Shown: in pieces, positions 27,601-52,142 of the stretch
Numbering within the stretch: the stretch's first letter is position 1
Layout of the letters: every line of letters begins with the position of its first letter
Assembly: GCA_008632985.1 (NCBI GenBank)
Contig: QPGO01000066.1
Coordinates: forward strand, 62,001-126,000
DNA: 64,000 nucleotides
Source of the DNA: Psammoneis japonica
Lineage: Eukaryota
Direction: 5' to 3'
Translations under genes and position numbers: made by a program
Notes under the pieces: model-generated
The model's input: only the letters and a program-made list of their open reading frames with translations
What the model was told of the DNA's origin: nothing
Database searches by the model: none

Positions 27601-28400
27601 AAGCATGTTGACAAACCCTGAAAAATTCTTGATGCAATGGCCCAACACTTCCAAGAACACAACAGCATGGCGCAAGGTTCTTGTGCCCAGCTCACAAACC
27701 TCCTGCAAAGACAAAATGTTTGTTTTCTTGACAAAGCAGTGCACTTGTTTCACATGTGTTTGAAAACCACTTTCCACACCTTTTCTGGTTCAAAGAAATG
27801 TGGGCAGGTCAGTGAAATCGCCAAATGACCCGTCAATGATTTGGCCATGCCCGAATCCAAACCATTGCCATTTGCTGTTGTTGCAACATGCACAAGACTG
27901 AAAAAGCAGTGCTCCTGCTGTTGACACAATTTTTTGGCATCTTGCACATCAACACATGTGGCAGAGCTCAGCTCGGCAGGCAGCTCAAACGACTTGAGGT
28001 TGGCAGCATGGAGAACAACACACCGTCACTTTTTTGATGAAAAGAGATGACCAGGTTTTGGTGTCAAAACACACACTCCCAATTTTCTGCTCTGGCACCA
28101 TGTTTTAGTCTTTTCCTCCCTCTTCACAGCAACAAAAGGCACGGGGCACTTGCGCACACTTTTTGGCTGGGGGATCATCTGGGGCATTTGTTGCAGACAC
28201 ATTCACACGAGTGGGGGGTGGGGCAGTTCTAGGTTCTGAGATTCAATGCTCAGATTTCCACCATCCAAAAAAACTCCAAAATTGGAGTGGGGTGGGAAGG
28301 TGCAAGATTCTATGCTTGGAGAAGATTCATCTCTTCTTTGGTTGTGTGACCACAAGAATGAGCGAGGTGTTTGCAGTCATGCGCCTCGTGCCTGTCATTC
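24640..28400. mobile_element. Old degenerate repeat/TE relic, family unassigned
   Basis: Strongly depleted in both TpA and CpG, with fragmentary Cys-rich protein-like frames and no intact ORF. Confidence 0.4.
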
Positions 28401-28411
28401 AATAAGGCAAT

Positions 28412-28761
28412 GACTCTCGCATAAATCGAACTGAGACTCCACGACTACACATGTCCTTTTTAAAAAATGTCAATGTCTGTTGCAGACCATTTTCAATAGC
28501 CCTATTGCGTTTGTTGTCGAACTCAAGCTAGAAATTGTCCTCACCATGACTGTCATTCTCAAAATTGCTGTATTCTTATCATATGAGATGTCTTGGCAAG
28601 ACTCTCTGCATAAATCGAACTGAGACTCCACGACTGCCGCATGTTCGTTTAAAAAATGTCAATGTCTGTTGCAGACCATTTTCAATAGTCCTAATGCGTC
28701 TTTCGTCGAACTCCAAGATAGGAATTGTCCTCATCAATGACTGTCATTGACAAAATTACTG
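28412..28761. repeat. Tandem duplication, 2 x ~190 bp (plus a short AGCTTTTCCGTTGC duplicate at ~28768/28829)
   Basis: GACTCTC..CATAAATCGAACTGAGACTCCACGACT...AAAAAATGTCAATGTCTGTTGCAGACCATTTTCAATAG occurs at ~28412 and ~28600. Confidence 0.85.
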
Positions 28762-29729
28762 CATGATAGCTTTTCCGTTGCGTAGAAGTTACAGTACCGC
28801 ATTCTTATTAACAAAATGTCTTCTTAAGAGCTTTTCCGTTGCATAGAAACACTACCGCTGATACCCTGTACAGTATTATGTACCTGGCATGTACAGTGCG
28901 TACGACAGATCGACAAACTCGTACGTAGGGCCCTACGTACATTACTTCTACATACGCACTTCTAGTCTTCTATTGTTGATTTTTTGTTGCGCCTTGTGCC
29001 GTTGCCGTAAAGACCATGACAGGTGGCGCTGTTTTCGACGCGTTCATGGTCGAGTGGCGCTGTGGCACTGCTTCATTGCGTTGTGACCAAGTGGTGCAAA
29101 ATCGAGTGTAATTTGACGAGAACAATGTTCCATTCAGGCACGCGCATTCATGCGAAAAGCCGCAAACGACGCAAGGATTCCACTTGTCATGTTTCATGTG
29201 CTGCACAGAAGAGACATGTGACCGATTCAATGCAAATGCCGGGCTACAATGTCAAAGTTTTCGGCACAATTCATCGTCTCTGATGCAAGCTGTGTCGTTG
29301 AGTCCACGAGATGCAATGCCTCGACAAAAAACGACACATCTTCGCAGACTCACACTTTTTGGAATCTTTCCAGTGTCAGTCCACACAATGAAGTTCCAAG
29401 TGTCAGCCCTGGCTTTACTCTCTTGTTTGAGCAGCTTGACTTCTCCGGCAGTTGCCCAACAATGTGACGGTCCAGGACGGAGGACTTGCAGAAACACGGC
29501 GGGCTGTGAGTGGGTGTTCCGCAGCTGCATCGATGCTGATTCGCTTGCTCAACAGTGTGACCGTCTTCCAAGGAGGATTTGCCAAAACACGGCGGACTGT
29601 GAGTGGGCAGTCCGCAGCTGCACCAATGCTAATTCGCGTGATCCATGTGTTCGGCTGAGGGGGGGAACGTGCAGAACCACCGAGGGTTGCTCATGGGAAC
29701 GCCGCAACGGCTGTGTTGCTGCTGGTGCG

Positions 29730-32700
29730 CCCCCGACGACTTCTCCCACCAAGTCAAACGCCCCCTCTAATGTTCTATCCAGAGCCCCAAGCAACAAGCC
29801 AACCGGCGCACCCAGCGGATCACCATCTGTTTCGCCTTCGTCTGATCCAACTGAATTCCCCACAGACATCCCAAGTGGCATTCCTTCGTCAGTTCCAACT
29901 GTTGCACCTTCTGCTGTGCCATGCTTGCACCAAGTGTCGTCCCTTCGACAGCGCCTGGCGTTGCAATGCCCAGCGGTGTTCCTTCAGGTGTTCCGAGCAA
30001 TGCTCCATCCAATGTGCCAAGCCATGTCCCCACTGTCGCTCCCTTTGGCATTCCGAGCAATTCTCCTTCAAGTTTGCCAAGCGCAGTTCCCAGTGGAGCT
30101 CCCTTGAATGCTGTCATTCCTTTGAATCTGCCAAGCGCCGTCCCGTCGGGAAACCCTGGCAATTTTCCGAGCCAGCCACCGAGTGATGCACCTTCGAGAT
30201 CGCCAAGTGCAGTTCCAAAAAGAGCTCCGCCCCCTCAATCAAGCAATGCGCCTTCAAGTCAACCAACTGCTTTGCGATCTGATGGTCCAAGCAACGTTCC
30301 ATCGTCAGCGCCTGGCGGTGTTCCTGGCATCACACCAAGTGCCGTTCCTTCGATTTTGCCAAGCGCCGTTCCGTCGGGAGCGCCCTCTCATGTTCCGAGC
30401 CAGTCACCCAGTGACGTGCCTTCGAGGTCGCCAAGTGAAGTGCCAAGTGGAACTCCCTCCGATGGTCCGAGCCAGACGCCGACGTCTCAATCAAGTGATG
30501 CGCCTTCGAGTCAGCCGACTGTTTCGCCATCTGATGACCCAAGTGTCGTTCCATTGTCAATGCCCAGCGGTGTCCCCAGCATCACCCCGAGTGCCAATCC
30601 TTCGATTTCGCCAAGCGGATTTCCGTCGGGAGCTCCCACCGATTTTCCGAGCCAGACTCCTAGCAACTCGCCTTCTAGATCGCCAAGTGTGGCACCCAGT
30701 GCTGCTCCCTGCAATGCACCCAGCCAGACACCAACGTCTCAATCAAGTGACGCGCCGTCAAGTCAACCCTCTGCTTCACCCTCTAATGACCCAAGCATCG
30801 TTCCATCGTCAGCACCCAGCGGTGTTCCTGGCATCACCCCGAGTGCCGCTCCTTCGATTTTGCCAAGCGCCACCCCGTCGGGAGCTCCCACCGGTGGTCC
30901 GAGCCAGTCACCCAGTGACATGCCATCGAGACCACCCAGTGCAGTTCCAAGTGGGGCTCCCTCCGTCGCTCCGAGCCAAATGCCAACGTCTCAATCAAGT
31001 GATGCACCTTCGAGTCAACCAACTGTTTTGCCCTCTGATGGCCCAAGTGACGTTCCATCGTTGGCACCTGCTGGCATTCCTAGCTTCGCACCGAGTGCAA
31101 TTCCTTCGATTTTGCCAAGCGGCATTCCGTCGGGAGCTCCCACCAATTTTCCGAGCCAGACGCCCAGTGTCTTGCCTTCTAGATCGCCAAGTGCAGCACC
31201 GAGTGCTGTTCCCTCCAATGCTCCCAGCCAGACGCCAACATCTCAATCAAGTGACGCGCCTTCACGTCAACCTTCTGATTCGCCATCAGATGGTCCAAGT
31301 GACGTTCCATCGTCAGCGCCCAGCAGTGTTCCTGGCATCACCCCGAGTGCCGTTCCTTCAATTTTGCCAAGTGCCACCCCGTCGGAAGCTCCCTCTAGTG
31401 CCAATGGCAAGTCACCAAGCGGCATGCCATCTAGATCACCTGGTGCAGTTCCAAGCGGGGCTCCCTCCGTTGCTCCGAGTGAAACGCCAACGTCTCAATC
31501 AAGTGGCACACCGTCAAGTCAGCCTTCTGCTTTGCCCTCTAATGGCCCAACTTGCGTTCCATCGTCAGCGCCTGGTGGTGTTCCTAGCGTCGCACAGAGT
31601 GCCATTCCTTCGATTTTGCCAAGCGCCATTCCGTCGGAGTCTCCCACCAATTTTCCAAGCCATTTGCCAAGTGACATGCCTTCGAGACTGCCAAGTGCAG
31701 CACCCAGTGTATCTTCCTCCAATGCTCCGAGCCAGATGCCAACGTCTCAATCAAGCAATGCGCCGTCCAGTCAACCGACTGTTTTGTCAAATGGCCCAAG
31801 TGACGTTCCATCGTTGTCGCCCAGCAGCATTCCCACCCCGTTGGGAGCTGCCACCAGTTTTCCAAGCCAGTCACCCAGTGAAATGCCTTCGAGATCGCCA
31901 AGTGCAGCACCCAGTGGAGCTCCCTCTAATGCCCCGAGCCAGATGCCAACGTCTCAATCAAGCAATGCGCCATCCAATCAACCTTCTGTTTCACCCTCTG
32001 TTGGCCCGAGTGACGTTCCATCATTGTTGCCTGGCGGTGTTCCTGGCAACACACCGAGCACCATTCCTTCGCTTTGGCCAAGCGCCATTCCGTCGGAAGC
32101 TCCCTCCAGTGCTCCTGGCCAATCACCAACGTCTTCTGCAAGTGACGCACCGTCCAGTCATCCAAGCGAGTCTCCCTCTTACGTTCCAAGCAGCGCGCCA
32201 TCATCAGTTCCTAGCAATGTTCCCAGCAGCTCACCGAGCATGGTTCCGTTGGAAGTTCCATCGACCATCCCAACCTTGGCTCCATCTCAGACACCCAGCG
32301 ACGTGCCATCGAGCTCACCAAGCGCCATTCCGTCCCAAGTGCCCTCTGATGCACCGAGCGAGTCACCAACATCAACTGCAAGTGACGCGCCGTCCAGTCA
32401 ACCTGGTGAGTCGCCCTCTGATGTTCCAAGCGATGGGCCGTTGGCAGCTCCAAGTGGCGTTCCCTGCAGCTCGCCAAGCAATGTTCCATCGGAAGTTCCT
32501 TCGATCATCCCAACCTTGGCTCCGTCACAGACACCCAGTGACGTGCCATCAAGCTCGCCAAGTGGCATTCCGTCCCACGTGCCCTCTGATGCACCAAGCC
32601 AATCACCAACGTCTTCTGCAAGTGACGCACCATCCAGTCATCCAAGCGAGTCTCCCTCTTACGTTCCAAGCAGCACGCCATCATCAGTTCCCAGCGGTGT

Positions 32701-35670
32701 TCCTGGCAGCTCACCGAGCATGGTTCCGTCGGAAGTTCCATCGACCATCCCAACCTTGGCTCCATCTCAGAAACCCAGCGACGTGCCATCAAGCTCGCCA
32801 AGCGCCATTCCGTCCCACATACCCTCGGATGCACCGAGCGAGTCACCAACATCAACTGCAAGTGACGCGCCGTCCAGTCAACCCAGTGAGTCGCCCTCTG
32901 GGACACACAGCATTTTGTCGCCAATTGCGACATTCCCACAAATGAATTGGATGATTTGTCGTGAAAAACACCCTTTGAGACAAATTTCAATCGTTGGCGA
33001 CAAACAAGACAAAATCATCATTTAATTGGCGATGGCGTGTCCCAAACACAAACGTTGTGTCAACCACAGTGCTTTGTGATGAATTTAACTTTCGGCGAAG
33101 ACTGCACTTGTCAATCAATGTTTTGGCGATTTTGTCGTACGTGCGACAAATTTTGTCGTGTGCGAAAAATTTTGTCGGACGTACGACAAATTTTGTCGCA
33201 TCCGACAAACCCCGACAAACCCTGACAAACCCCAACAAACCCCAACAACGTACGACAAACGCCGACAAGAGCCGACAAACGCCGACAAACGCTGACAGAC
33301 GGACGTTTGCGACACTGTCTCCACGAGATTTGCCTGCCGCTTGCTGGACCAGCAGAGAGCCAGGCCCTGGCTGCCTGCTGACAAAAGGTGCAGCACAGCA
33401 ATGCATGCCGGTGCATTCCATTCCACTGTGCAGAAGCGCACGATGTTGTCCCGGCATTGACGAGAGTGTGACATTTGGGGACATGGAGTGACAGTGCAAA
33501 ATTTCGAAATCAAAAAATTGGAGACCGCCGAGAGCGGCATGATCGTCGCTTTGCATCATCGCGCAAAAGAGACACAGTGTCAACGGAGACGCCAGCGGTT
33601 GGCGTGTGCGGCGGGGGGTGTGGGTGTTTCGTTCGTGAGTCGTCGTGTCGTGACGTGCAGTGATGTGACGTGTCGTGACGTGTTGTGACGTGTCCTGTCG
33701 TGTCGTGTCTTGTCGTGTCGTGTCTTGTCTTGTCTTGTCGTGTCGTGTCGTTGTCGTGTCTTGTCAGATGGAGACAAATTTTGTCAGATGAAATTTCGTC
33801 GATGACATCGATCGCCAAATTCTGTCAATTGCCCCACTCATTGAAACGACATTGCCAAAGTGCAGGTTGGTCATTGATGACATTGATCATTTTGTGACTT
33901 GGTTGGACAATGTTTCTGTCCCGTTTATCGCCAACCCAGACATTTTGTCGCAACTCGCGTCTTTTCGTGACAAATCATCAATTCATTTAAGAAAATGTCG
34001 CCAAATGCAACAAAATGCCGTGTGTCCCTGATGTTCCAAGCGATGGGCCATTGGCAGCACCAAGTGGCGTTTCCAGCAGCTCGCCAAGCAATGTTCCGTC
34101 AGAAGCTCCTTTGACCATCCCAACCTTGGCTCTGTCACAGACACCCAGTGACGTGCCATCAAGCTCGCCAAGTGCCATTCCGTCCCACGCACCCTCTGAT
34201 GCGCCGAGCCAATCACCAACGGCCACTGCAAGTGACGCACCATCCAGTCAGCCCAGTGTGTCGCCCTCTTACATTCCGAGTGGCATGCCATCATCAGTTC
34301 CCAGCAGTGTTCCTGGCAGCTCGCCAAGCAATGTTCCGTAGGAAGTTCCATCGACCGTCCCAACCTTGGATCCGTCACAGACACCCAGTGCCATCCCATC
34401 AAGCTCGCCAAGTGCCATTCCATCCCACGCACCCTCTGATGCACCGAGTCAGTCACCAACGGCCACTGCAAGTGACGCACCGTCAAGTCAACCAAGCGAG
34501 TCGCCCTCTGATGTTCCAAGTGATGTTCCAAGTGATGTTCCATCGACAGCTCCGAGTTTTGTTCCCAGCATTTCACCGAGCAACATTCCGTCGGGAGTTC
34601 CATCAACCGCCCCAAGCTTGAATCCGTCGCACACACCGAGCAAAGCGCCATCGAGCTTGCCAAGTGCCATTCCATCCCTGGCGCCCTCTGATGCGCCGAG
34701 CCAGTCACCAACAACCGCTGCAAGTGACGCACCGTCCAGTCAACCCAGTCAGTCGCCCTCTGATGTTCCAAGTGATGGGCCATCGACAGCTCCGAGTTTT
34801 GTTCCCAGCATTTCACCGAGCAGCATTCCGTCGGAAGTTCCATCAACTGCCCCAAGCTTGAATCCGTCGCAGACACTGAGCGACGTGCCATCAAGCTCGC
34901 CAAGTGCCATTCCATCCTTGGTGCCCTCTGATGCACCGAGCCAGTCACCATCAGCCATTGCAAGTGACGCTCCCTCTGGTCAACCCAGTCAGCGGCCCTC
35001 TGACATTCCGAGTGATGGGCCGTCATTGGCTCCCAGCAGTGGTGTTCCCAGCAGCTCCCCAAGCAATGTTCCATTGGGAGTTCCATCATTCACCCCAAGC
35101 TTGAATCCATCGAAGACAAAAAGCGATGTGCCTTCGAAGTTTCCCAGCCAGGTGCCATCTTCTGTCCCCAGTTTTGCACCTTCTGGAAACCCAGCATGTT
35201 GCCCAGTGGTGCTCCGAGTGAGATGCCAGCAGTGCCCAGTGTTGACCCTTCAAGTGCGCCGAGTGCAACGCCATCAGCAATGCCCAGTGATGTGCCATCC
35301 ATCTCTTACGCCCCCACAGGAGCACCATCAAGCTCTCCCAGCATGTTGCCCAGTGGTGCCCCGAGTGAGGAGCCATCAGCAGCACCTGGCGTTGCCCCTT
35401 CAAGCGTGCCAAGTGCGATGCCATCGACAATGCCCAGTGATGCACCATCAATCTCAAATGCCCCCACAGGAGCACCGTCAATCTCTCCTGGCATGTTGCC
35501 CAGTGGTGCTCCGAGTGAGGAGCCATCAGCAATGCCTGGCGTTGCCCCTTCAAGCGTGCCAAGTGCTGCGCCATCAGCAATGCCTGGTGATGCACCATCA
35601 ATTTCGAACGCCCCCTCGAATGCCCCCTCGAACGCCCCTGCAGGTGCGCCAACAAGCTCTCCCACTCGTG
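29730..35670 (+). repeat. Hierarchical coding minisatellite (Pro/Ser stalk): 252-bp, then 240/480-bp, then ~147-150-bp units
   Basis: TCAATCAAG anchors at 30487, 30739, 30991, 31243, 31495 and 31747. GCAAGTGACGC anchors at 32138, 32378, 32618 and 32858. CATGTTGCCCAGTGG at 35195, 35342 and 35492. Confidence 0.9.
32901..34027. mobile_element. Non-autonomous Harbinger-like element (MITE), ~65-bp imperfect TIRs, CTG target-site duplication
   Basis: CTG|GGACACACAGCATTTTGTC ... CAAAATGCCGTGTGTCC|CTG. Removing it restores TCGCCCTCTGATGTTCCAAGCGATGGGCC, matching the sister repeat unit at 32411. Confidence 0.92.
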
Positions 35671-37500
35671 ATCCGGCCAACGCTTTCAACATTGAGTTGG
35701 TCGACATGGGAGACAATGCTGCTCCTCCTGAATACGCTCAAGCGTTTGCCGATGCCAAGGCTCGATGGGAGTCTGTCATTACAAATGACTTGTCGGACAT
35801 CGCGCAGGCGTCATTCCATGGCATTTCAGACTGGTTCACAGGGCAGTTCTCACAACCTTGTACGGCAGCATTTGATGATCTTGTCATTGGGTTCGAAGTT
35901 GACTTCATCGATGGACCGGGCGGCACTCTTGGTCGAGCTGGCTGCAGATGCCGCATCGTCAGTCGCTGTGTAACTGGTGTCATGCAGTTTGAGTTGGTTG
36001 ATTTCCAAAGCTACGACCTTGACGACGCCAAAGTTGTCATTCTTCACGAGATGGGTGCGTTTTTGACGAGATTGTTGTGGCATTGGTCTAGCAATAATTT
36101 CTCACCTCAGCAATGTTTGTACTTCTCATTGTGAATGCATTTGTGGGACATGTTCTTGGGCTTGTTGGGCTTCTTTCGTCGTGCGGTGACGGGTGTCCAG
36201 CAACGACCTTTGCTTGCCAGTGCTCACTTGCTGTTCAGGAGCACAACTTGTTGGACCGATCTACTCTCCTGGACAGTACATTTAACAATGCTCTCTGCCT
36301 CGAGGACATTAATCGCCCCGGCACACAGTGCAGTCACTGGGAAGAAGAAAACTTCAGAACAAGTCAAAGCTCGGAGCTTGTGACTGGCTTCTTCGAGAGC
36401 TTTCTCTTCCAGCCAATTTCCCGAGTTACGCTTGCCGCATTGGATGATTTGGGGGTGCACACTGTCGACCACAGCAATGCAGACCCTTGGCCTGCTGAAG
36501 GGACACGTCACCGTGAACCAAAGGATAGAAAGGAGCCCAAGTTTCCCATGCTTCAGACGAAGTCACGCTTTTACCTCCCCGACTTGATGGAAGACCTGCC
36601 TCCCCCCATTCAAATTGCTGACCTGTCTCCCCGAAAGAAACCGCCTCCCAAAAAGAAACGGCACCCCCGAAAGAAACCGCCTGCCCAAAAGAAACTGCCT
36701 CCCCGAAATAACCTTCGAAACCGCCATCGAGGTTGTTGACCCATCCATGCCAGAAGGAACCTTCGAAACTAGAGACAGGGATTTCTTGTGGGGCACACAG
36801 TTGCTTTAGTTGAACAAATCTAATGTCATGCGGGCACCACACAACTGGCGCATAAAAGTTGCTGTGCTGCGTGGCGTTTGCATTCCTGACATGACGAAAT
36901 CCGAATTCGTGCACGGCATTTTTTAGAATGATGTGCTCGACAGTGTCATCTTGAAATGTCTGTCATGCACAGTGTCTTGGATCTTCGGTGTCATGCCTCT
37001 AGAGTAGAGTCTCCTGCGGCTCTCTAGTGCTGTCTAGAGATCTCCCAGTGATGGACTGGAATGGCTTTGCTGGCGGATGCGCAAGCCTCATTCCCAAAAA
37101 CCCAAGCTGGAACGGCAGGGCCAGAGGGCGGGAGAGGTGGGAGCGTTAAAAACTGTCCAGCGGCTTCTTGCTCTTTGTTGCTCTTTGGAAGAATGAGTGA
37201 AACAAGCGAGAGAAAAGAGCAAAAAACCGTCATTTGCTCGCCAAGCTCGCGCAAGCACGTTCAAATTTGAATTCAAATGGTTTTTTGACCCGACGGTCAA
37301 AAATGGGTCATTTGCCTCGTTGCACTGCACAAGGTGGGCGGCTCACGCCGCCCGTCTTGTTCCTTCTCCTGCGGCTCTCTAGTGCTGTCTAGAGATCTTC
37401 CAGTGATGGACTGGAATGGCTTTGCTGGCGGGTGCGCAAGCCTCATTCCCAAAAACCCAAGCTGGAACGGCAGGGCCAGAGGGCGGGAGAGGTGGGAGCG

Positions 37501-38697
37501 TTAAAAACCATCTAGCGGCTTCTTGCTCTTTTGAGGATTCTGAGGGACGTCAGCATTGGGGTGTGGGACGAAGTTGCCGCTGGCGAGCATGTTGCGAGCG
37601 AAGTTGCGCATGACTGGTTCTGCTTGCAAATGCAGGTGTCGCAACATTTCGTCAGATTGCCAGCGACCTAAGAGCCGAATGAGATTGGTGTCAACGCGGG
37701 CACAAAGGAGGGCCATTGCCCCAGCGGCACGAAGACACCGAGCGGCAATGTCTCGGGTGGTGAAGCCAAGATTAGCCGGACCGAGAGCAGTGACAGCATT
37801 GCGAAGCATGCTGGTGATGTCGGCCGGGGACACACGACGCCAGGTGTTGTTTTGAAAGCAAACACCAAGGGGTGTGTCAGGCAGTGCACCATGGGTGCAC
37901 AAGTGTTGGACACAGCGGATGAGGGCTTGAACCGGGCACAGGTGAGGGTGACCGGAAAGACCGAGCCCCAGAACTTTGCCTCGCACTCCATTCTTCCTGG
38001 TGGCAAATGTGAGAGTGGCGAAGGTTGCTGTGTCAAGGTGTGCAAGTGGAACTTGCATGGAAACAAGATGAGCACCACCGGATGCAAGCCGGACATTGGC
38101 GAGACGAAAGGGGGTGGCATCGGATGGTGTTGCGGTGCATTCGCCAGGCTGCAACAAAAAGAAAAAGGTGACGACAATCATGTCAGCAACAGCTTGTGTG
38201 CCCGGGTCATTGCTGAGGGCTGCGGCGGTCATAATCCATTGCAGCACTGCAATTGGAACAGGTTTTGCACAGTCTGGGGGTGGATCCTGCTTCTTGTAAA
38301 AACGGACTTGCCGGGTGAGACGGAAATCCATTGTGCCTTGGGATGTGTGGCGCGGATCCGGGGACCCCATTGCAGTGAACGTTTGGCCAACCGAACGTGC
38401 GGCATCTTCAGCGGTTCTTCCACGGACGGGATTGCCCATCGGCGCGAGGACTCCTGTGCGGCAGCGGTGCAAGAAGACTCGGAGGAAGACAACGGGGTCA
38501 TCAACGTCTTCGAGGAGTGGGTCGATGGCCAAAGAGGAGCAGAACTCTTGCCATTTGTCCCAATGGGCATTGGCGGCGGAGGCTCGGGAAGAGGCAACGC
38601 CATGCTGGACGGCGTGTTGAGCAGCATTGAGATCACACATGAACTCAGCTCTGGTGGAGGCATCCAGAGACGCCAGGAGAGTGTCCGCGGATGGCAA
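37501..38697 (-). pseudogene. Tyrosine recombinase of the retrotransposon (catalytic Tyr now His)
   Basis: FFFLLQPGECT (cf. LRPGEYT), RKNGVRG, LCPV, ARCLRAAGAMAL and GRWQSDEMLRHLH (cf. GRW.SD.MLRYLH). The His codon CAC is at 37636-37638. Confidence 0.88.
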
Positions 38698-40500
38698 AAA
38701 TTAAAATGGCGCAGGAATTCACGGTTGGACAAAGACTGCAGGCGGGAGGCATCGTCAGCGGCAGTGTTGAGGCACCCAGGTAAATGGTCATGCAACCCCA
38801 AGCAGCGATGGCAGCGTTGATGGCAGGATTGGTGTCGAAGCAACCGGGAGGCGGGTTTGATGGTGGTGGTGGCACCTTTACGTTGCCAATGCATGGTGCC
38901 TGAATTGTCGGTGCGTGAAAGGTTGGTGCGTTCACGGTGTCAAAGCAGTCGGCGGCGCCGCAGGACTGGATGACACTGCTGGCAAGTTCCAGGTCTGTGT
39001 TGGTGATGGGACCTCTTGGGTTGGAGAAAGTGGAGAGTTGACTGCTGACACTTTTGGGGAAAGGCAGTCGCCACACTACAGGACCCGCATCTCTCTGTTG
39101 ACAGCATCGGCAATTGCCGAAACGGAGAGTGGCTGCTCAAGGTGCTGTGGTGCTGGCAGGTGGAAGGACGCCGCCTGCACCGTGACCTGCAGCATCATGA
39201 CAACTGGTGAGTGTTGGTCTCAGTGGAACCAATTCTTGAATGAGAACGGGTCGGGTGTCTGGGGCAGATTCTAGATCCCGAAAGTCATCCAGTGCGCAGT
39301 GCGCAGTGGCAGAGATCCGGAGGCGTGAGTCCGGCATGGTGTGTCGGAGATTTTCTTGGAGCACTGAGAAGAGACCCCGGGAGCCAGGGATGGCAATGCT
39401 CAAAGAGCGCAGCTCTCCCAGCAGCTTTTGACAATCAGAGACTGTGGCACGTTTACATGTGCGGAGAAAATCCTTGTGCAGCGTTGCACGAAGTCGGGCA
39501 CGCCGACGGGGCGTGAGCCGGATGGTCATAGCGCAAGTGTCTGTGAGCCATCCCAGGACTTCTTTCTGCGTGGACCATGTGGCATCACCCTGGCGGAGCT
39601 TCTTGACGGAGACGGGCTCCTTGCGGGTGGCTGGGTCGTGTGCATCGAGTGGGCGAAAGACGTCATCGAGAGCGTGCAGTGTCACACGGTGGACATTGCT
39701 CCGGGCTCGTTTGGATCCTTGCGCAGCACCAAGGAAGTCATCCACACAGATGTCAATGCATTGCAAGCGGCGGCGCCGATGCGGTCGAAGGTGTGGGTCG
39801 GGCGTGTCAGGAATGGGCACGGCCTGTGAAGCTGCGGCAACTTGTGGTGGTTGGTGCTTCGGCGGGCGGCCATCTAAGAGCGCTTCCAGCGGATGTGGCG
39901 GCGCTTGGACGTTGCGCACCAAATCCAAATTGGCGACATCGGCGACAGTTTCCGTTGACGTGCAGAACAATGGCGGGGAGTTGGCCCAGCCCATGGGCAA
40001 GCGTGTTGGAATTGCAACCAATGGCGGCTCTCCCGGTTGGCTTGGGAATGCTGCACCAAGTGCAGGAGCCTGTTCTGGTGCGACTTGCATGCAGCAACAA
40101 CCATCAGCCAGGTCTATCTTCATGAGGTAGACGGTGCCTTTTTTAGGATCGGCAAGGAGGATGCAGCGTAGAAGGCGGTCAAAGGCAAGTCCGAATTGCA
40201 TTGCTTCCATTGCAGTGTTGGGTTGCGTGGAAGTGTTCAGCCCATGGCAGGTGCAGTCCACGATGGGACGGGGACGTCGACCATGTTGAGGCACAACGCC
40301 AATTGGACTTGGGCAAAGACCGGGGGCATGGCGCACTTCCTCGTAGGGGACGACAACCCAAAAACCTTTTTCGACCACATCAGCCATGTCCTGGTGCAAA
40401 AACTCGATGTGTTCGTAGGCGGATTTGTGTGGACCCCTGGAGACACTAGCGTCTAGCTCAGCATGCGTCCATGGTGCATCGGCGGCAGTGATGGGGGCAC
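38645..40500 (-). pseudogene. Reverse transcriptase/RNase H of the retrotransposon, degenerate
   Basis: SPIGVVPQHGRRPRPIVDC, AMQFG, KIDLADGCC, LPMGWANSPPLFC, DICVDDF (cf. YVDD), KEVLGW, LLGELRS, DAAGHGAGG and ITNTDLELA. Confidence 0.88.
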
Positions 40501-40789
40501 CTCGGCACTTGCAAGTGCTCAGAAGTCGATGAGCTGGGTGTTGCTTGACTCAATGGAGTGGACCCCAATCGCCTCTGCCACTGCGGTGATGCAACAAGTG
40601 ACTGAGGCCTTTACGACGCAGCAACCCAGCATCAATTCGCATGTGCTCACCTGGTTTATCATCAAAGATTGCGGCAGCAACATCCTGTCCACGGGTGGTG
40701 GGGTGGGTGTGCTGCCTCTTGAAACTCTCCACAGTCGGGGGTTGTGGATGCAACAGCGCATCGGCCATCGCGGGTGAAGGCTCTCGGCT

Positions 40790-43023
40790 CCAAGTCCCCG
40801 AACTTGGGCCGTTGTCGAAGACCTGTTCGGTCTTCCAGTTCTCCTCACCCCAGGTGAGAAGGGTGGCCTGTTCGTCTTCTGTGTGGTCATTGCGATGATC
40901 ACAGGACGAGCCACAGTTGGTGTTGCATTGCCCTTTGTAATGGCAAGGGAAGCAACGAGGGCGACCTTGGGCATCTTTGGGGAGGTCGATGTTGTCCCTT
41001 GCGCATCGGTTTTTGACATCGCGTGACCTGACATTGGGACGGTCCCGGAGCGTGGAAAAGCGGTTGTCGCAGGAAGGATTTCGGACTGCGCTGTTGCTTC
41101 CTGCAGCTTGGCTGGTGGGGGCCATGTTGTTGGCAGGCTGGCATTGAGATGCTGGGGCCGGTGTGCCAGCAGGCAAGTGCAGATGCCAGCAAACGATTCC
41201 TTCAGCTGCTTCAAACACAACGTTGAAGGGTGTGAATGGCAATGGGTGGAGTGAGGCTTCTTGAGCCTTGAACCAATGGTGAGCTTCAATCTGCACATGG
41301 CGTTGAAAGTCCACGGGAAGGGTTGGGCACCAAGTGGCCTGTGCTGCCAATTCATTGGTGTGTCGGTCCATGTCTTGACATTGACGGGTGAGCCACTGGA
41401 CGACTGGATGGTTGGCCCCAAGCAAAGCAGAAAGCACCAGATGGCATCCATCGCACGACTTCTGGGCGGCTTGCATTGTCGTTGCCATGAGCGCCTTGTC
41501 TGGAGCTTCCAGGATTTGAGTGTCCTGGAGGGACGGGGCCGCAGTGCCGCCATGAATGTGCACATGCATGGCCCTGCGGCAGGCAATCTGTTCGGCACTG
41601 TCTGGTGCAGTGATCCCAAATTGGAAGGGGGTGATGCCTTGGGTGGGCTCGTCTTGATTGTGACCAGCAAATTCGAGCTGCACGAGCTTGGCAACGAGAC
41701 TGACAGTGACAGGTGCGTTGAAATGGACGGCCATTGCCTGGCGTTGCTCGTCAATTGCATTTTGGACAACTGCCAGGCGGCCTGTCTTTGGCGCCGCGGC
41801 AAGTGCAGCCCACACAGGTGGCAATGCCATCTCGTTGAGGACGTGGCACCAATTCATGAGCTTGTTGACACCGAAAGGTCCTCAAAATTTGTTGGGCACC
41901 TTGCCCCGGGCAGCCGCTTGCTGACGTGCTGTAGCATCAAGTCGAAGTTGGCGTTGCTCAGTGGTGAGCCCTTCAATGGCTTGCATGACTGGCTGGAAGT
42001 GCTGCGCAGTGGGTGGCGCATGGCCCAGTCTCCCAGGGATGTCACGCAACACCTTGGCATCAAAGAATTGGATGAGGGCTTCATTGGGGGGCGTGTCATG
42101 ACAGGCCAAGGTCGTGTCACAACAGACACCATTTGGTCATTGGCAATGGCACAGCAGGCGACGCAAAGAAAATCGAGCAGTGGTCGGATGGCAGCCACTT
42201 TGTTGGCTGCCGTGGCGGTGCCGTGCACCCGCTGATGGGCTTGTTTTGGGCACAAGGGTTGTGCCAACAAGAGCGGCACAAACTCAAATGGCACATGCAC
42301 TGCATTCCTGGTTCGCACGACCTCCGAATTTTGTGCATTCTCAGCCAGATGCGGATGCAGGCCGTCCGCATTGTTGGTGACATGCTCCAACAGTGCAGCA
42401 TGAGTCGGCACCCTAGTCCCCTGCTGTGCCAGATTGAACGAGTCGTCTCCAAATTCAACCAGAGTGAACTGTCCACGGGTTGGATCACCCGCCATTGCAT
42501 GCACTTCACCGTCCCAAGGTTCGGCGGGCCCAACCACGGTCGTCGGACAAGTGGTGACGTGGTGGAGGACTTGAGTCTGTCCTTCATCTGCTGCACCAGC
42601 CTCTCGACAGTGCACGATGACTGCCATCGGCTGATCGTGACTTGACACCGCTGCAACTCGCCCATGCAGTGTTCCAGGGTTGCATCTGGAAGGTCCCTGA
42701 ACCGGGACCGTGAAATCCAACATTGAATCATTGCATGCCCCCTGATGTGGGTCGTTGGCGGCAGCAAGGTAGAAATCACGACAAGTTGAAATGACCGGCG
42801 GCGCCGCCGGCACGGCTTGGGCACCCGGTGGCGGTGGCTGTGCTAAGGCTCCTGCTGCTTGCGGTGCCAACAGAGGCACCGGAACTTGAGGCGGAGGAGG
42901 TGGCAGAGCGTTTGGGACCACCGCGGCGGCTGCTGCAGCTCCTCCTTGCGGTGGAGCCGGATCGTTGACATTTGGGGCGTTTTGGGCCCCTTGACCTGCG
43001 TTTTGCTGCTGTTGCGCGTCCAC
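40790..43023 (-). pseudogene. Gag-like ORF of the retrotransposon, frameshifted
   Basis: Pro/Ala/Gln-rich N-terminus and a terminal CFPCHYKGQCNTNCGSSCDH zinc-knuckle-like motif just upstream of RT. Confidence 0.65.
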
Positions 43024-43312
43024 AATGAACCCAACAAAGATTCTTCCTGCGAGCAATGGGAAGCTGCGGCAGAGGCTCCTGCGCCGCGTCGACAGCGTTA
43101 AAAACCATCTAGCGGCTTCTTGCTCTTTGTTGCTCTTCGGAAGAATGAGTGAAACAAGCGAGAGAAAAGAGCAAAAAACCGTCATTTGCTCGGGCAGGGG
43201 AGCTGTGTGTGTGTGCGTGGTTGTGCGCGCACGGCTTTGCCGTGCATTGAGTTTTAATGTTGTCATCCACACGAATGTGCGTGTTCCACAAGTAAAAATT
43301 CCCATTCCACAG

Positions 43313-45296
43313 CTCCCCTAAAACTCTAACCACCAAAAACCGAGGGGTTGGAAGTGCACTTTCGGGAGCTCTTTTTCTCCGCACAAAAAACACGCGTTTC
43401 GTCGACTCGACCATGATGATGCCTCGTGGTTCTTCCCCATCACCTTCCCAGGACGCCGATCCTCTACTGACACCGTTGCCAATGACACTGACACAACAGG
43501 CAATGTCATCATTCCGGTTCTCGTGGGTGTGACACGTACAAAATAAGATGCTACAAACTCACACTGTTGTTTGCACGCTCCACCGCCTCCCACAGATGCT
43601 GTCACGAATTCCAACGCCGCACCTGCGTTTCGGGCCCCCAGCATGCCGACACTGTTGCTCCTGCCCTTGCTGCCGCAGGCACTGTTGACACTGTTGTTGC
43701 ATTTTGCCAATGACGTCCACAATGAAATGCCAACAACTCACACTTCTTTCATTCTCGCCCCACCGCCTCCCACAGATGCTGTCACGAATTCCAATGCCGC
43801 ACCTGCGTTTCGGCCCCCCAGCATGCCCGACACTGTTGCTCCTGCCCTTGCTGCCGCAGGTGCTGTTGATGCTGTCACATGCCCGACACTGTTGCTCCTG
43901 CCCTTGCTGCTGCAGGTGCTGTTGATGCTGTCATTGTCTTTTGCCAACAACGTCCACAACGAAATGCTTGTAACTCACACTTCTTTCATTCTCGCCCCAC
44001 TGCCTCCCACAGATGCTGTCACGAATTCCAATGCTGCACCTGCGTTTCGGCCCCCTGGCATGCCTGACACTGTCAATCCTACCCTCGCTGCTGCAGTCAC
44101 TGTTGACACTGTCATTGTTTTTGCTTTGGAAGGAACACAATGGATGACGGATGACGGCGGACCAGGAAACCCACGCAACCACGGCCTGCTGATGGACGAC
44201 ACATCAATGGACATGAATGGTGCCTCTTGGTTGGCTCTCGAGTGCAGTCTAATCTTTAGAATGTGCAGACACATCATGCAGCTCTCTGCAAATTAGAAAC
44301 CTGACAACAATTGGATGGCAGGCATGCTTTCACAGTTTTTTAGTTTCAAGTTGGAGAGGTCAGCGAATTGGCATTTGTTTGCAGGCGACTTGGCAAGGTT
44401 TCAAATGGTGCATGTGACTTGGACACTGCTCCATTTTCCAGGACTGGGTCATTGTGCACAATTCCATAAGAGGCCACTCTCGCCGCTTGAATTCTACATG
44501 TGATGCACAACGTGCTGTTTTTGCATGTTGCTAAAATGGAGGCAGGCAGCAACGTGCTTTTGGCAAATGCTCACTGTGTTTGTCGCTGTCAGACCTTCAA
44601 AACTGGTGCCTTGTCGACAGCCATGCTGCCACTTTGCATGCCGGCACCTTCTCTGCCCGCATTCCATTGGCTACGTCCTCCTTCACATGTTGCTGCGGTT
44701 CACATTGACACTTTTTGTTGGCTCCGATTGGTTCTGCTGGGCTCTGGGTGAGTCTCAATCACCTCCAGATGGACAAGGTTCTGCTTGGGAATGATCATCC
44801 TGAGAAAGGTTGTCACCACACCTCCTGTCACAGATGCTCCTCTGCCACGCCCACTGAACCTTGACATCGGTTTGTTGCTTTTGTTTTTTAACCTGGTTTC
44901 GGAGCTGCACCCCAGACCGTTTGAGAGAAGGCTCATCAGTGCCTTCCACAACACGGCGGTGCGAACGAGAATCCAGTTTCTCCGGGGACGCAATGACAGG
45001 AGCAGACCAATCACGGCGCTGTGTTTGTGTTTCAGGCACAGGATCTGGCGAACAGAAGCCCAAATCCTCCGGATGGCAAATCGGCTGTGTTTGGGTAATG
45101 ACAGCGGGTGCAACGGCACCGGCCAACACAGGAGGGACTGCCGCATCAGATGTGGCAGGCGGGGATGCGTCAGGTGGTGTGGGGGACGAAGAACGGGAGG
45201 TCATCATGGTCGAGTCGACGAAACGTGCAGAGAAAAAGAGCTCTCAAAAGTGCGCTTCCGACCCCTCGGTTTTTGGTGGTTAGAGTTTTAGGGGAG
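43313..45296. mobile_element. ~2-kb element with ~100-bp terminal inverted repeats; superfamily unassigned
   Basis: CTCCCCTAAAACTCTAACCACCAAAAACCGAGGGGT...TTTCGTCGACTCGACCATGATGA at 43313-43419 is mirrored at 45201-45296. No clear TSD was found. Confidence 0.8.
43575..44115. repeat. Three imperfect tandem copies inside the TIR element
   Basis: GCCTCCCACAGATGCTGTCACGAATTCCAA at ~43585, ~43765 and ~44002. Confidence 0.85.
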
Positions 45297-45793
45297 AACA
45301 TGGTTCAGGATTTTTCCTGCTGCTGTCAGCATTTGTGTACAAATGCATAAATAAATGTGAGGACATTTATATAAAAATGTAATGAATAAGATATAAACTG
45401 CCACGTAACCATGACATCACCACATTCTCCCCTGCCACAGGGGTGCGTCGTACTACACAAGGTGGGTACATGTTATGTATTATACTGTGGCCAGACGACC
45501 TTGCTAATGTAACTCATACTGTAGGCCCTAAATATGTACTAAAACGGAGATGACCGCACTCCAAAGGGCTATTGATTTTATCTATTGCCCGATAAGTTTT
45601 CAAAATTTCGTAGAAGCTACGTGTTTTAAATCAGTACAGTCTGTGTGTCGTTCCGCGTCCAACGCATGGCGAGTTCGGAGTCTAGCTCTAGTCGTCGTAT
45701 CACGCATTCACCATGTTCGTTGAACAACACCGAATACAGACCTTGCAATACTCTTCCTCTAGTAAAGGCTCATTTTTATGATTGATTAGCAAC

Positions 45794-47882
45794 ATGGTAT
45801 TACCAGTCAGACAGTCCCCATTGTCGTCTCAGAAGAATGATCTTTATGCAGAAAAGAGAAAAAAGGTGTGGTGGTGCAAGAGCAATCTCGCCGTTTTGGG
45901 TTTGTGCATGATTTCCTTTGTTGCGGGGTCCTTGTGGACAGCGTTGGGGAGCATGTCGGCTCTTCAAATTGAAGCGCTGGTGCAACAGAGATTAATCGAA
46001 GAACGTCAAAAATTGTTTGGTACACACACAAAAGAAAAGACTGCTGCATCGACAGATGATGCTGTGGTAAGAGTTCGCAAAGCACTAGCAACTCAGAATG
46101 TTGAAGAATCGAGACGCGACCCACCGCATCAGCCATGTGAATCGAATGGTCCAAGATTTCCAAATTCCATGAGGAGATTTGCCAGAGGCATGGCACGGGT
46201 CAACCGAGCAAACTTTACACAAACACTCGATTTGGGTGTCCCGATTGATCACCCACTCCATCAGGAGGGCATAAATGACGTTTTGTTTCTCTACAAGAGT
46301 GACGATGCTGTTCCGAAGAATCGTTTTTTTCGTTCTCACGTCACATCCAATGGTGAAATTCCAATCTTGAATGCCGAAACCGCCTTGGAGAATTGTCATA
46401 CGCTTCACGTAATTTTGACGCAACACGATTCTCCAGATAAACAATGCATGGCGATTGTTCCGCAGTACCCGTCCATGCACATTCAACGGTACATGCGGGT
46501 ACCACCCGCCATTACGTTTGCAGAGAGGGAAAGGACAAGGGTAGATTCCAACCTACCATTGCGTTTGGTCGGACGAGGCCTTCGACAAGATGGTTACAAC
46601 GAACACAGACCTTCCACCAAGGAAACTACTCAGCAACACTGGAGGAATTTGAAAAACTACTTTATGTCCGTGGACCGAGTCATGATGGAATTAAAGGTTC
46701 TAGCCAACCGAGTGGCACGTAACAACACCATTGTCGTCATGGTGTGCAATCACGGACAATCCGAGATTTTGATGAATTTTGTCTGCTCGGCCAAAGCACG
46801 CAACCTTGACATTGGCCACGTTTTATTGTTTGCAACCGATTTGGAAACCAAACAACTTGCCGAATCCATGGGTATGACTGTCTTTTACGATGAAACTGTA
46901 AGTCGTTGAACTGTGCGACTGATTCGTATGATTTGTGCTTGGGGTCAAGGCTCAATCATATATACGCTTGTGTGCTTTTTTACGCATAAAGCTGTTTTCG
47001 GATGTTCCGACCAAAGCAGCTGTTGGTTATGGCGACAGGATCTTTGCCGCCATGATGATGTCCAAGGTGTATTGCGTCCAACTCATTAGTATGCTGGGAT
47101 ACGATTTGTTATTTCAAGATGTTGACTTGATTTGGTATCGCGACCCAATTTCCTTTTTCCAAGAAGAGCAAAATGAAGAATTTGATGTATACTTTCAAGA
47201 CGACGGCGCTCGAAATCTGCGGTATCAACCCTATTCGGCCAATTCTGGATTTTACTTTGTCAAGAGCAATCCCAGAAGCATTCATTTTTTCAACTCCTTC
47301 CTCCTTCAGGGCGACATGATTTTGACCAGTCGTAGTCATCAAGAAACCATGATTCAAATCATGTCGGAGCACCAATCTCTTTTTGGATTGCGCGTCAAGG
47401 TGCTTGGAAAGGAGCGACACGAGTTTCCTGGTGGCTTTCATTATCATATGGATAAGGCGTTCATGAAGAAAATGATAAAGGGAGAGACGAATCAATACGG
47501 TAAGTGGCGCCCGTATAGTCTTGTGTTATTGGTTTTGCCTTGCGCCACCGTGGTATACAATGCTCACAACCAATCCGCACCATTTTCGCTTGTAGTTTTC
47601 CACATGTCATGGACAGAAAATAAGGACAACAAGCTCTTGTTTTTGAAACAAATGAATGAATGGTATGTCAAGGATCAATGCGTAGGAGCGAATAACAGCG
47701 ACATGATTACGAACAATGCCGACGACTTGCAAAACGAATGCTGCTCGCCGAAACCACTCTTTTCGTGTCATTACAGCGACAAGCCCAGCAAATACCCATG
47801 CAATGACAAACCGCCCATTGACAAGGGAGCAAAGCCATTTTGGGGTCAAAATGAGCTTGTCCAACGAAAAATGGCGAATTAA
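45794..47882 (+). CDS. Nucleotide-diphospho-sugar transferase (GT77-like), type II membrane; join(45794..46897,46992..47499,47596..47882)
   Basis: N-terminal TM helix, then IVVMVCN.GQSE.LMNFVCS, LGYDLLFQDVDLIWYRDP, FQDDG, ANSGFYF and VFHMSWT. Two GT-AG introns. Confidence 0.88.
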
Positions 47883-48330
47883 CGGGTTTGTGAAGTCCGG
47901 AGGAAGCACAAACTCTCAATCAAGAAGGCTAGTAGTAACGGGGTTTCATACTATCGATTGCGTAGGAAACTGGTACTGCGAGGGAGAACTCTGTTCGACT
48001 CTTTTTGTTCGAAAATAGCAAGTCGGTCGTGCGTTTCTGTTTGTCACGGGGCTATCAAAATCAGTGGTATAGATTGTGCAAAGCATGGAAGGAATGGTTT
48101 TCAACTTTTTAGAACAATAGACATGAGCATCAATACATGGGAACGACTGCACGGAATGGGCGCGGGAGGGTAATACATAGGGTTATAGGTAGCTTTTACG
48201 ACACCGATGTGTACGATGGGGTGAATGGGACTCTTTCTAGAGTGGTCAAGAGTGATGCTCTTGATGTCCTTTTGATTACGTAGCTTTGCATTCTGACTAC
48301 AAATGATTTATTGCAATCACAATGGGCGAC

Positions 48331-50274: not shown

Positions 50275-50640
50275 TGTGCAAATAGGGTTGATAATATGGC
50301 AAGAAAGAGAAACACTCGTCGTGTTCTTTGCACATTCTTCGGGTTGTGGTGTCAACTCTGCCGTGCGACTTTTTTTGGAATTTTGAGGTTGGCGTGCGCG
50401 CGACTTTTTTTACTGTTGAAGCACGAACCAAATTACCTTATTCATATTAGGGAAATACACTAAAGATATATATTTGATCAAATGAAAAAACCTTATTCAA
50501 GTTTCCACCCTATGCATCTTTATCAGCATCTTTCTCGCAACGGCCGCAGGATCGCAGATGATGATGGCTGCGGCGGCGCTATTACTGTTTTGCCATAGGC
50601 CCTACCGGATGCACAACTCCACTACCCAATGCAATCAGGC

Positions 50641-52095
50641 ATGTCACTCCTCCATAAGGCATGTATATGCTTCTTACTGACAACGCATGGTTCTTTGGCG
50701 TTGCAAACCAGTCCACATCGGCCTGCTTCTCGAGTGAAAGATTGGAACAACAACAGCAATAACAGCAACAACAACAACAATGATTTACTAGCTCAGCGTC
50801 GTCGTCGTCCATTCAGTACCATCCCCGAAACGGCTCCAGGAAATCTACGTCGACGATGGTTTGGAGATGAGGTACCCAAACTCAGCATGCCCATTGCCTT
50901 GACGAGTGCCATTGTGGCTTCACTCAAGAGCAAGAATCCCATCGACGCCATTTCTCTGTTTTTCACAACACTGCTGGACGAGCAACAAGCTCAAAACAAA
51001 AACGACGCCCTGCCCATTGCATACAAGCCTTTTGAACAATTGAATTTTTGCAAGGACTGTATCAAGACACAAGAAGCGATTCGTCAAGCTCCAGTGAAAC
51101 CGTTTTTATTGGAATTAACTCCACAAGCTTGTAGTGTCGATCCCAACGACTCTGCATGTCAGTTAGATTGGATTCAACAACACTCCGAGCAACTGCGACA
51201 ATACAAGCTATCCCATGGAGCCGTCTATTTCAAATCATGGTCCTTGTTTCAAGATGCACATGGCGTCCAACAAGCATGGCAAGCACTGGGATTGACACCG
51301 TGTCGTGATCCCAAAGAAGTTCGTGGTCCGACACCACTCTTGCAGGGCAGTTCCACCATTTATGAAACACTCAACAACAAGGCGGATGCCCAAACACATT
51401 TGGGATTGCACTTTGAAGGCATTCCCGGAATCATGCCCACGTCGGCGCTCTTTGCGTGTTTTACTCCCGCATCAAGTGGCGGAGAATTTTTGCTTTGTGA
51501 TGGACGACGCGTCTTTTGTGACTTGGATACCGAAACGTTGGCCCATCTCGAAACCAAGAAACTTCGACCCACCTTTGCCGAATTGCCGACATGGATATCC
51601 AAATCTCCCTTGCATTTCATACCCATTTTCAACACGCTCCATTTCGAGTTGCTGGCACTCTTTACCGACATGACCAAACCCACCGACGACTTTTTTCTTG
51701 ACGTTTTTCCAACAAATAACAATTCTGAAGAAACATGTTTGAAATTGACAACGCACGCCACGGTTCCTGTGTTATTGCATCCCGTCACGTCCATTCCCAC
51801 TTGGTTTTCCGGTATGGACGCGGGACTCAAGCGTAATTTTGATCAAGACAATCCGCATTTGACGGATAAAAAAGGCAAATACGCGTCGGAAACCTTTAAT
51901 GTACGATATGGATGTAATGGAGAGGAATTGTTGGAACGTGATGTACGACATGTCCGAGAGGCGTGTCGCAAACACACTGCAGATTTGTCCATGCAATCCG
52001 GCGACGCGGTATTGTTGGATAATTTTACGGTATTGCACGGACGGAAACCCTTCCAGGGGACTCGGCAACACGCGGTTGTTTGGTTTTTGGATTAA
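50641..52095 (+). CDS. TauD/TfdA-family 2OG-Fe(II) dioxygenase with N-terminal targeting peptide
   Basis: HGAVYFK, LGLHFEG, FACFTPASSGGEFLLCDGRRV, HPVT...WF and MQSGDAVLLDNFTVLHGRKPFQGTR. Confidence 0.85.
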   Translation: MSLLHKACICFLLTTHGSLALQTSPHRPASRVKDWNNNSNNSNNNNNDLLAQRRRRPFSTIPETAPGNLRRRWFGDEVPKLSMPIALTSAIVASLKSKNPIDAISLFFTTLLDEQQAQNKNDALPIAYKPFEQLNFCKDCIKTQEAIRQAPVKPFLLELTPQACSVDPNDSACQLDWIQQHSEQLRQYKLSHGAVYFKSWSLFQDAHGVQQAWQALGLTPCRDPKEVRGPTPLLQGSSTIYETLNNKADAQTHLGLHFEGIPGIMPTSALFACFTPASSGGEFLLCDGRRVFCDLDTETLAHLETKKLRPTFAELPTWISKSPLHFIPIFNTLHFELLALFTDMTKPTDDFFLDVFPTNNNSEETCLKLTTHATVPVLLHPVTSIPTWFSGMDAGLKRNFDQDNPHLTDKKGKYASETFNVRYGCNGEELLERDVRHVREACRKHTADLSMQSGDAVLLDNFTVLHGRKPFQGTRQHAVVWFLD

Positions 52096-52142
52096 AAAAA
52101 AAGAACAAACAACGAGCGACATTGGTAGTTAAAATAGAAACA

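Follow-up and report, generated by a model that had tools for sequence, protein, structure and literature searches.

The stalked protease gene and its lesions

The window analysed here (64,000 nucleotides of Psammoneis japonica, contig QPGO01000066.1, positions 62,001 to 126,000) contains a single-copy, once-working gene for a stalked leishmanolysin-like (M8) zinc protease, which is now a pseudogene and has lost most of its TpA dinucleotides (hereafter TA) to TG and CA. Its product was probably secreted; the signal peptide was judged by eye. Coordinates are window positions unless a contig or locus is named, and the genome searched comprised 91.4 Mb in 597 contigs. The window was also compared with a sequencing run (X1), which may be the source sample and is thus not a second or independent allele. 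DNA depleted of TA is called erased, and depletion is given as the observed-to-expected ratio (o/e) or as the share of TA kept. The features of the locus are the following:

28403–28974 (no strand): TA-rich spared island between erased blocks, single-copy, with a local duplication of ~190 bp
28975–29387 (+): 5′ flank or 5′ untranslated region of the gene, erased, non-repetitive
29388–29850 (+): ATG, hydrophobic signal-peptide-like leader and Cys-rich N-terminal repeats (translation)
29851–32899 (+): 5′ part of the Pro/Ser-rich stalk, with arrays of 252 bp x 6.3 and 240 bp x 3.4
32898–34030 (+): miniature inverted-repeat transposable element (MITE) in the stalk, the element itself at 32901–34027 (inverted ends, target duplication, copy number)
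34031–35669 (+): 3′ part of the stalk, with arrays of 240 bp x 4.3 and 150 bp x 2.9
34339–34341 (+): nonsense codon TAG in place of the TCG of sister repeat units (translation)
35670–36054 (+): first exon part of the M8-like protease domain, up to HEM-G (alignment to the homolog P0144)
36055–36146 (+): phase-1 intron within HEMGH, with a GT donor and a TGG end
36147–36739 (+): last exon, with the second His, the third-ligand SHW motif, the Met-turn site and a Lys/Pro tail (PF01457, homolog columns, 1LML profile)
37010–45281 (no strand): downstream repeat-derived DNA in the same erased block, up to a 3′ edge at 45205–45338 (read depth, TA o/e, change point)

The last exon matched the Pfam family PF01457 (Peptidase_M8; E 7e-6, 25.4 bits against a cut-off of 21), and a profile built from five homologs matched leishmanolysin (1LML) across the zinc motif, the SH motif, the ELM motif and a late Tyr. 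A Pfam search of the N-terminal part (29388–29850) gave no match. P0144 (58% identical) is the homolog nearest to the first exon part; the sole named homolog comes from the diatom Attheya sp., and further relatives were found in metagenomes. The gene's TGA stop lies at 36737, its true end being uncertain. According to X1, whose contigs restore the frame, the assembly is in error at a 1-nt gap (29921) and at two further gaps (35189 and 35226), and no frameshift was found near 35970, where one had been suspected. The 6-kb tandem repeats announced by the first-pass annotation, a model's reading of the sequence, are really ~4.6 kb of arrays, with 75–84% match between units, plus the 1.13-kb MITE.

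The MITE has inverted ends of the GGACACACGGCA type and a CTG target duplication, and the reading frame is continuous once it is removed. It has 167 matches in the genome, and most of the 20 copies that were fetched show CAG/CTG target duplications. Inverted ends, a 3-bp duplication, many copies and no coding capacity are all found in it; from its ends and duplication we take it to be of the PIF/Harbinger type. The TAG at 34339 is a transversion and not a product of the TA process, and the X1 contig over 34152–34569 agrees with this nonsense codon (0 other letters). Either the MITE or the nonsense codon suffices to kill the gene without any change at the splice acceptor discussed below; these two lesions come in addition to those of the first-pass annotation. 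The M8 active-site residues are encoded, but they cannot be joined under the AG rule of splicing, the Met of the ELM motif is Val, and a stop and the MITE lie upstream. Judged from its sequence, this copy is a member of M8 by descent and not a working enzyme. It has in common with leishmanolysin (PF01457, 1LML) the HExxH motif, the downstream SH ligand, the ELM motif and the late Tyr, and differs from it in that a short diatom-type domain ends a long Pro/Ser stalk and that the copy is a pseudogene.

The zinc motif itself is split. The first exon part ends CAC GAG ATG G at 36054, GTGCGT follows from 36055, the segment ends TTGTGG at 36146, and GA CAT GTT CTT GGG comes directly after; excision of these 92 nt (G|GA) rebuilds HEMGHVLG, a motif also present in close homologs. 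The segment has 40% GC against 52–53% in the flanking exons and contains an in-frame stop. The intron proposed in the first-pass annotation, starting with GTGCGT, splitting HEMG from H and ending in TTGTGG, is therefore borne out on the sequence. That annotation also read the end as TAG>TGG, a splice signal that would give the direction of change, and this stands only in part: the TGG is there (the base at issue being G36145), whereas the ancestral AG is inferred and was seen in no homolog, because none of those examined has an intron at exactly the HEM-G/G-H position. Introns of the paralogs lie 4–6 nt further on or are absent, and HEMGH is read through in the 17 metagenome loci, among 20 examined, in which the motif was found. 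X1 contains all of the 135 sampled words of 35640–36900 (share 1.00), and its contig over 34884–37039 has 2 other letters, one of them at 35391 and none at 36145 among the differences listed; therefore, on the evidence of this single run, the TGG was not introduced by the assembly. No other AG restores the motif, since a cryptic AG at 36109 would push HEM and H apart by 12 codons, and with the next AG downstream, at 36199, the second His would be lost. The donor GTGCGT was considered as a second TA mutation and is not claimed as such, a TA-normal paralog (L005) having GTGCGA at its likely donor.

It is very improbable, in our judgement, that the segment is instead an 89-nt insertion with a TGG duplication, without any mutated acceptor, and such an origin would leave the other evidence for hypermutation unaffected. 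TGG does stand on both sides of the segment, homologs have no intron at this position and the metagenome loci read through it, and at GTAG sites (with their reverse complement) the outcome GCAG outnumbers GTGG about fourfold (23 against 6, at few distinct sites), so that TAG>TGG is a minority outcome, ~1 in 5 mutated sites. But the segment begins with GT, has the size of an intron (~65–85 nt in the paralogs), is AT-richer than the exons, and has neither inverted ends nor a second copy in the genome; moreover, the A of any TA remains a far more probable site of A>G than other A. A GT intron of normal size is thus the likelier origin.

Loss of TA in the gene and in the genome

The coding parts of the gene have a TA o/e of 0.04–0.24, against 0.55 in the genes at 45001–56000. 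Measured against chosen control genes as baselines, 12% of the TA survive in the 5′ flank and 22% in the N-terminus; the 5′ stalk retains 26% and 20%, the 3′ stalk 8%, the protease domain 39% and the 3′ flank 54%. Only 2 TA remain in the 5′ flank (29011–29387; CG o/e 1.08) and 3 in the 3′ stalk, the most erased part of the gene, while CG o/e in the protease gene is 0.65–0.94. The 5′ edge of the erased block lies 345–415 nt upstream of the ATG (28974–29045), and from this edge to its end the gene was hit in place, regardless of coding effect. On the other side of the edge, the spared island has a TA o/e of 0.66 over 28200–29010 (change points 28230–28403 and 28974–29045). A genome search with 28403–28974 returned only the self-match and no gene was seen in it; it is possibly a barrier or a promoter. 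Downstream of the gene, TA o/e in the block is 0.13–0.20. Surviving TA in the gene stand in the contexts YTAR (16), YTAY (11), RTAY (6) and RTAR (5). A strict rule of TA plus pyrimidine was rejected, as there is only a mild preference (3′ C 0.41, T 0.34, G 0.29, A 0.23; few independent sites).

The direction, from TA to TG or CA, is fixed in three ways: by homologs, by codon polarity in the stalk and by the MITE copies; the splice acceptor is a weaker witness than any of these. The homolog columns were counted over 47 homologs, all distant (identity at most ~60%). In the last exon, the four Tyr columns that are conserved at 79–95% have all changed, to Cys (TGC at 36215) and to His (CAC at 36242, 36458 and 36470). 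The changes EYN>EHN and YTVDYS>HTVDHS of the first-pass annotation are both among them, with Tyr in 38 of 43 aligned homologs at 36242 and in 42 of 44 and 36 of 44 at the two positions of HTVDHS. The Met of the ELMTG motif, present in 46/46 homologs, is Val in the window (GTG after T, CTT/GTG at 36380); it is presumably the metzincin Met-turn, in agreement with the 1LML alignment. Each of these changes at Tyr and Met is one TA>TG or TA>CA step. At the positions of six Tyr of P0144, the first exon part has His (35817), Cys (35859 and 35949), Phe (35892) and, twice, an unchanged Tyr, so that 7 of the 10 scored Tyr were changed by a single TA transition. The Cys in 'AGC' and in 'RCVTG' were rejected as former Tyr, as the closest homolog has both.

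Within the stalk, the codon that precedes decides. After CCT, 13 of 17 AGY/GGY codons encode Gly (GGY 13, AGY 4), whereas after CCA, CCC or CCG none of 89 does (p 1e-13). For Ser/Thr/Asn/Ile/Met-type codons (four amino-acid pairs), the A-starting form accounts for 8/213 after T against 376/529 after other bases; in an intact control gene, 164 of 550 such codons after T start with A (p 8e-18 against the 8/213 of the stalk).

The MITE gives the third line of evidence. Nine of the 20 fetched copies are young, 95.6–99.5% alike, and keep 47–50 of ~50 TA. Of 47 TA, the window copy has kept 7 (15%), while 18 became TG, 18 CA, none CG and 4 something else; 15 of its 86 CG have decayed. Twelve old copies, whose relatedness makes the counts less than fully independent, give transition rates per A of 0.345 at TA, 0.021 at AA, 0.012 at CA and 0.013 at GA; the rate at CG is 0.053. 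The window copy shows opposite outcomes at 6–13 shared sites with each of the 11 other old copies, which means that the hits came after the MITE had inserted. The neighbouring stalk is akin to the MITE in both clocks (8–26% of TA kept, CG o/e 0.65–0.82), and the two have therefore been silent for about the same time. About half of the 20 copies sit at the border of an erased and a normal block.

A second gene of the family was hit in the same way. Contig C6 carries a tandem pair of classic leishmanolysin genes, with a dead copy (C6:455945–461840; L146, L147; L137) 3 kb away from an intact, normal twin (464524–467070). The dead copy is split by a 3.8-kb insertion that holds a 42-bp x 21 array. 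Compared with the twin at 66 TA, it has kept 1, whereas 57 became TG (27) or CA (30), 1 CG and 7 something else; both strands were hit about evenly, as in the MITE. It keeps 52 of 122 CG. The erased block on C6 starts 240–390 nt before the start region of the dead copy, like that of the window gene. Apart from this one, the other M8-type loci scored (13 of 14) are TA-normal, with an o/e of 0.40–0.78.

At the scale of the genome, we examined 400 kb from four contigs and called a kilobase TA-poor when its TA o/e was below 0.25. The distribution is bimodal and the blocks have sharp edges: 150 of the 400 kilobases (~37%) are TA-poor. In these, CG o/e averages 0.25 and reaches 0.7 or more in only 12 of the 150. 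With its CG o/e of 0.65–0.94, the protease gene was therefore hit recently, TA loss running ahead of CG decay. Among the best 150 of 210 TA-poor frames by length in the 400 kb, Pfam gave 3 matches, one of them past the cut-off (a transposase), against 25 in 60 randomly drawn TA-normal frames; many of the TA-poor frames are spurious because loss of TA removes stops. For 54 of the 105 TA-poor frames around MITE copies, there were 4 matches (retroelement, DUF6570, ankyrin, CS). Host-type domains are thus rare in erased DNA, and most other erased targets are transposons or unnamed. The protease gene is an exception of native type, bearing an intron and having TA-normal paralogs, and the claim of the first-pass annotation that the process reaches genes other than transposable elements is supported by the codon polarity, by the Tyr and Met conserved in homologs and by the comparison of the MITE with its young copies.

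Some other erased DNA is described here for completeness. Ankyrin and CS matches (L043:2731–3282 and 5391–5939) flank a heavily hit MITE copy and may be dead host genes. The block L121:4500–9300 (C44, ~154.5–159.3 kb) is recently erased with CG intact and contains frames for a DDE_Tnp_4 transposase and an XPG/FEN1-like nuclease, which may belong to one element. In the window, the erased block upstream of the gene has a match to a PhyH-type dioxygenase at 20799–21584 (+; E 1e-5), a host-type domain or transposon cargo. In the downstream repeat DNA, read depth is 800–2300 at 37018–38000, Pfam gave no element family name for 37010–45281, and inverted arms of 72 and 50 nt enclose ~1.8 kb at 43313–45296, the right arm falling at the 3′ limit of that block. 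The gene was rejected as cargo of a Pack-type element: there are no long flanking inverted ends among the 25 longest of 80 pairs, and the 5′ edge is single-copy.

Silencing, targeting and chemistry

The process is a strand-symmetric A>G change specific to TA, which acts in place, is limited to domains and is blind to coding effect. We consider it probable that what was hit here is a silenced, transposon-interrupted transcription unit, hypermutated in place. The target would be a silenced chromatin domain with the shape of a dead transcription unit, and the gene would have been dead or silent when most hits came, in which case the acceptor change would be a consequence and not the first lesion. 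We lean slightly towards the MITE insertion as the event that started silencing; that the MITE landed soon after the gene had fallen silent is nearly as plausible. Silencing may have been reached through small RNAs and CG methylation, as for the transposons and some genes of Phaeodactylum. The locus itself may carry CpG methylation. The single-copy differences listed between the window and X1, at least seven (29075, 30665, 30690, 32063, 32071, 34642 and 35391), are all CG/CA or CG/TG pairs (chance ~2e-4), which hints at allelic CpG decay or at methylation-linked miscalls in a CG-methylated locus. As for the chemistry, adenine deamination by an enzyme of the TadA/ADAT2 type is the candidate, by analogy with what has been proposed for Bigelowiella natans (see below). 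TadA-like and ADAT2-like genes are among 9 deaminase matches in the genome, as in most eukaryotes; they look like housekeeping genes, and no fusion to a chromatin domain was seen in the frames read. A different zinc deaminase is fused to a 2-oxoglutarate/Fe(II) dioxygenase in one open frame (L081:313–1785, minus strand; C79, ~88.5 kb), with a probable role in nucleobase metabolism.

Several observations weigh against this explanation. All of the 20 fetched MITE copies, including 9/9 young ones, adjoin TA-poor DNA (chance ~8e-5), which suggests that the MITE tends to land in DNA that is already silent. Erasure is weaker past the boundary of stalk and domain (change point 35591–35780; 8% against ~40% kept, p 0.002), and this leaves room for an effect of the repeats. 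The edge near the start codon was found in 2 dead genes, and the block on C6 also ends 190–300 nt before the ATG of the live twin, so that promoters may simply be barriers. Reversal of TA changes explains only 9 of the 28 departures from the homolog consensus; the remaining ones are mostly conservative, a pattern that suits distant homologs. Also, an unusual deaminase was not found in two family searches of the genome, the ADAR/ADAT1 family lying outside that search.

More tentatively, and with considerable doubt on our part, the process in diatoms of this lineage may be an RNA- or chromatin-guided adenine-editing defence whose targeting unit is the silenced transcription unit. A transposon within a gene would then mark the unit in its entirety, starting at the promoter, and editing at TA would destroy it permanently. 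Such a defence would turn epigenetic silencing irreversibly into loss of the gene, a mirror image of the repeat-induced point mutation (RIP) of fungi, with no need of repeats or of a foreign origin. The signature points to a putative natural DNA adenine editor. If editing does follow silencing, it would set the speed at which silenced genes are lost and would bias the GC content of dead genes and their use of amino acids.

Three triggers had been suggested in the first-pass annotation: flanking elements, the gene's own repeats and its copy number. Passive spreading of a mutated domain from flanking transposon blocks into a bystander gene fits poorly and seems unlikely to us. Contact with erased DNA is admittedly common when ~37% of the sampled kilobases are erased, and the gene is continuous with the erased repeat DNA at 37010–45281. 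Yet the 3′ flank and the protease domain, which are nearest to that element, are the least erased parts (54% and 39% kept), and the gene is set apart from the 5′ block by the TA-rich island. Elsewhere, intact genes stand 0.2–5 kb from erased blocks, and four old MITE copies (L031, L033, L039 and L047) border fully TA-rich flanks within 500 nt. The island and the regional TA pattern make the gene the centre of an erasure of its own.

It is very improbable that the tandem repeats of the gene trigger the process by pairing, in the manner of RIP, although TA loss peaks in the stalk repeats downstream of the MITE and abates at the end of the arrays, and the insertion in the dead C6 copy also holds an array. 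The Pro/Ser repeat genes of contigs C4 and C62 keep a TA o/e of 0.40–0.63 with CG near 1; the one on C4, an intact gene of 3,462 amino acids, is TA-normal with a longer and more uniform repeat than the window arrays (264 bp x 24.2 at 89%). In the window, the 5′ flank, which is not repetitive, has lost TA to the same extent as the stalk. Repeats are thus not sufficient as a trigger. The two genes (C4:622035–632420 and C62:339201–343374) are related giant genes for Pro/Ser surface proteins with Cys-rich ends, both intact, and the C4 gene has a slight excess of Gly after CCT (5/62 against 2/281).

Error-prone repair of the polymerase-eta type prefers the motif WA. That the A>G changes come from such repair near decaying methyl-CpG, and not from an adenine deaminase, has little to recommend it: losses of TA and CG do coincide in the genome sample, where TA-poor kilobases are also poor in CG, but AA suffers 16-fold fewer hits than TA and scarcely exceeds CA or GA, there are few transversions, and in the window gene TA loss is far ahead of CG loss. 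The sparing of AA in particular makes this source unlikely.

Targeting because the gene is multicopy is hardly tenable and already largely refuted: the genome has many distant M8 genes and the dead C6 copy is a tandem duplicate, but nothing else in the genome matches the protease domain or the 5′ region at the DNA level, read depth is 54–65 over the unique parts with a single contig over the domain, the best paralogs are 35–43% identical in protein, 13 of the 14 other M8-type loci scored are TA-normal, and on C6 only one of the two twins was hit. What is targeted is thus determined neither by long repeats nor by copy number. With these two triggers excluded, the locus hints at the silenced transcription unit as the target.

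Comparison with known systems

In fungi, RIP ruins transposons by dinucleotide-specific transitions and can damage nearby or duplicated genes. It changes C to T at CpA, thus making TA from CA and TG, and its trigger is repeated sequence, with hits in both copies. The process described here is like RIP in its effect and opposite in direction, as TA falls while CA and TG rise. It also differs in its targets: the repeat genes on C4 and C62 are spared, a single-copy gene is hit, and on C6 one twin is hit and the other spared.

For diatoms, we found no report of the signature in the literature searched, which consisted mostly of non-subscription papers. For a gene interrupted by a transposon, Phaeodactylum tricornutum offers a known diatom route into a methylated and silent state: there, CG methylation and small RNAs of 25–30 nt occur on transposons and on some genes (PMC9998398, PMC4247016). 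The passages of these papers on which we rely report no TA-specific mutation, and the CG decay seen here fits such a route.

The closest parallel is the rhizarian alga B. natans. A recent preprint describes two single-copy or virus-derived regions in which all A:T>G:C mutations fall on TpA, in an ongoing process with a mutation rate raised ~1000-fold; an ADAT2 homolog is proposed, though not shown, as the cause, and 24 Pfam domains 'of likely host origin' are given among TA-depleted coding sequences (bioRxiv 10.64898/2026.01.13.699255). These domains hint that genes of host type are hit in B. natans as well. The two systems have in common regional changes of TA to TG and CA on both strands, which leave TA-poor clusters rich in CA and TG, hits in single-copy DNA and transposon domains among the targets. 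They differ in the host, which is diatom-like here (the preprint does not mention diatoms), and in extent, since ~37% of the sampled kilobases are erased here against a 5% cut-off class there. Here the target is a native gene that bears an intron and has no viral traits, and loss of TA goes together with CG decay. The mutation rate was measured in B. natans, whereas here it is inferred from footprints, the differences listed against X1 being of the CG type and not of the TA type.

In the literature searched, this preprint on viral DNA was the only account of TA-specific A>G hypermutation. The footprint over about one third of the sampled diatom-like DNA extends the process to another supergroup, and the protease gene tests its targeting: neither repeats as such, nor copy number, nor foreign origin, but silenced domains, native genes included, would be what it strikes.

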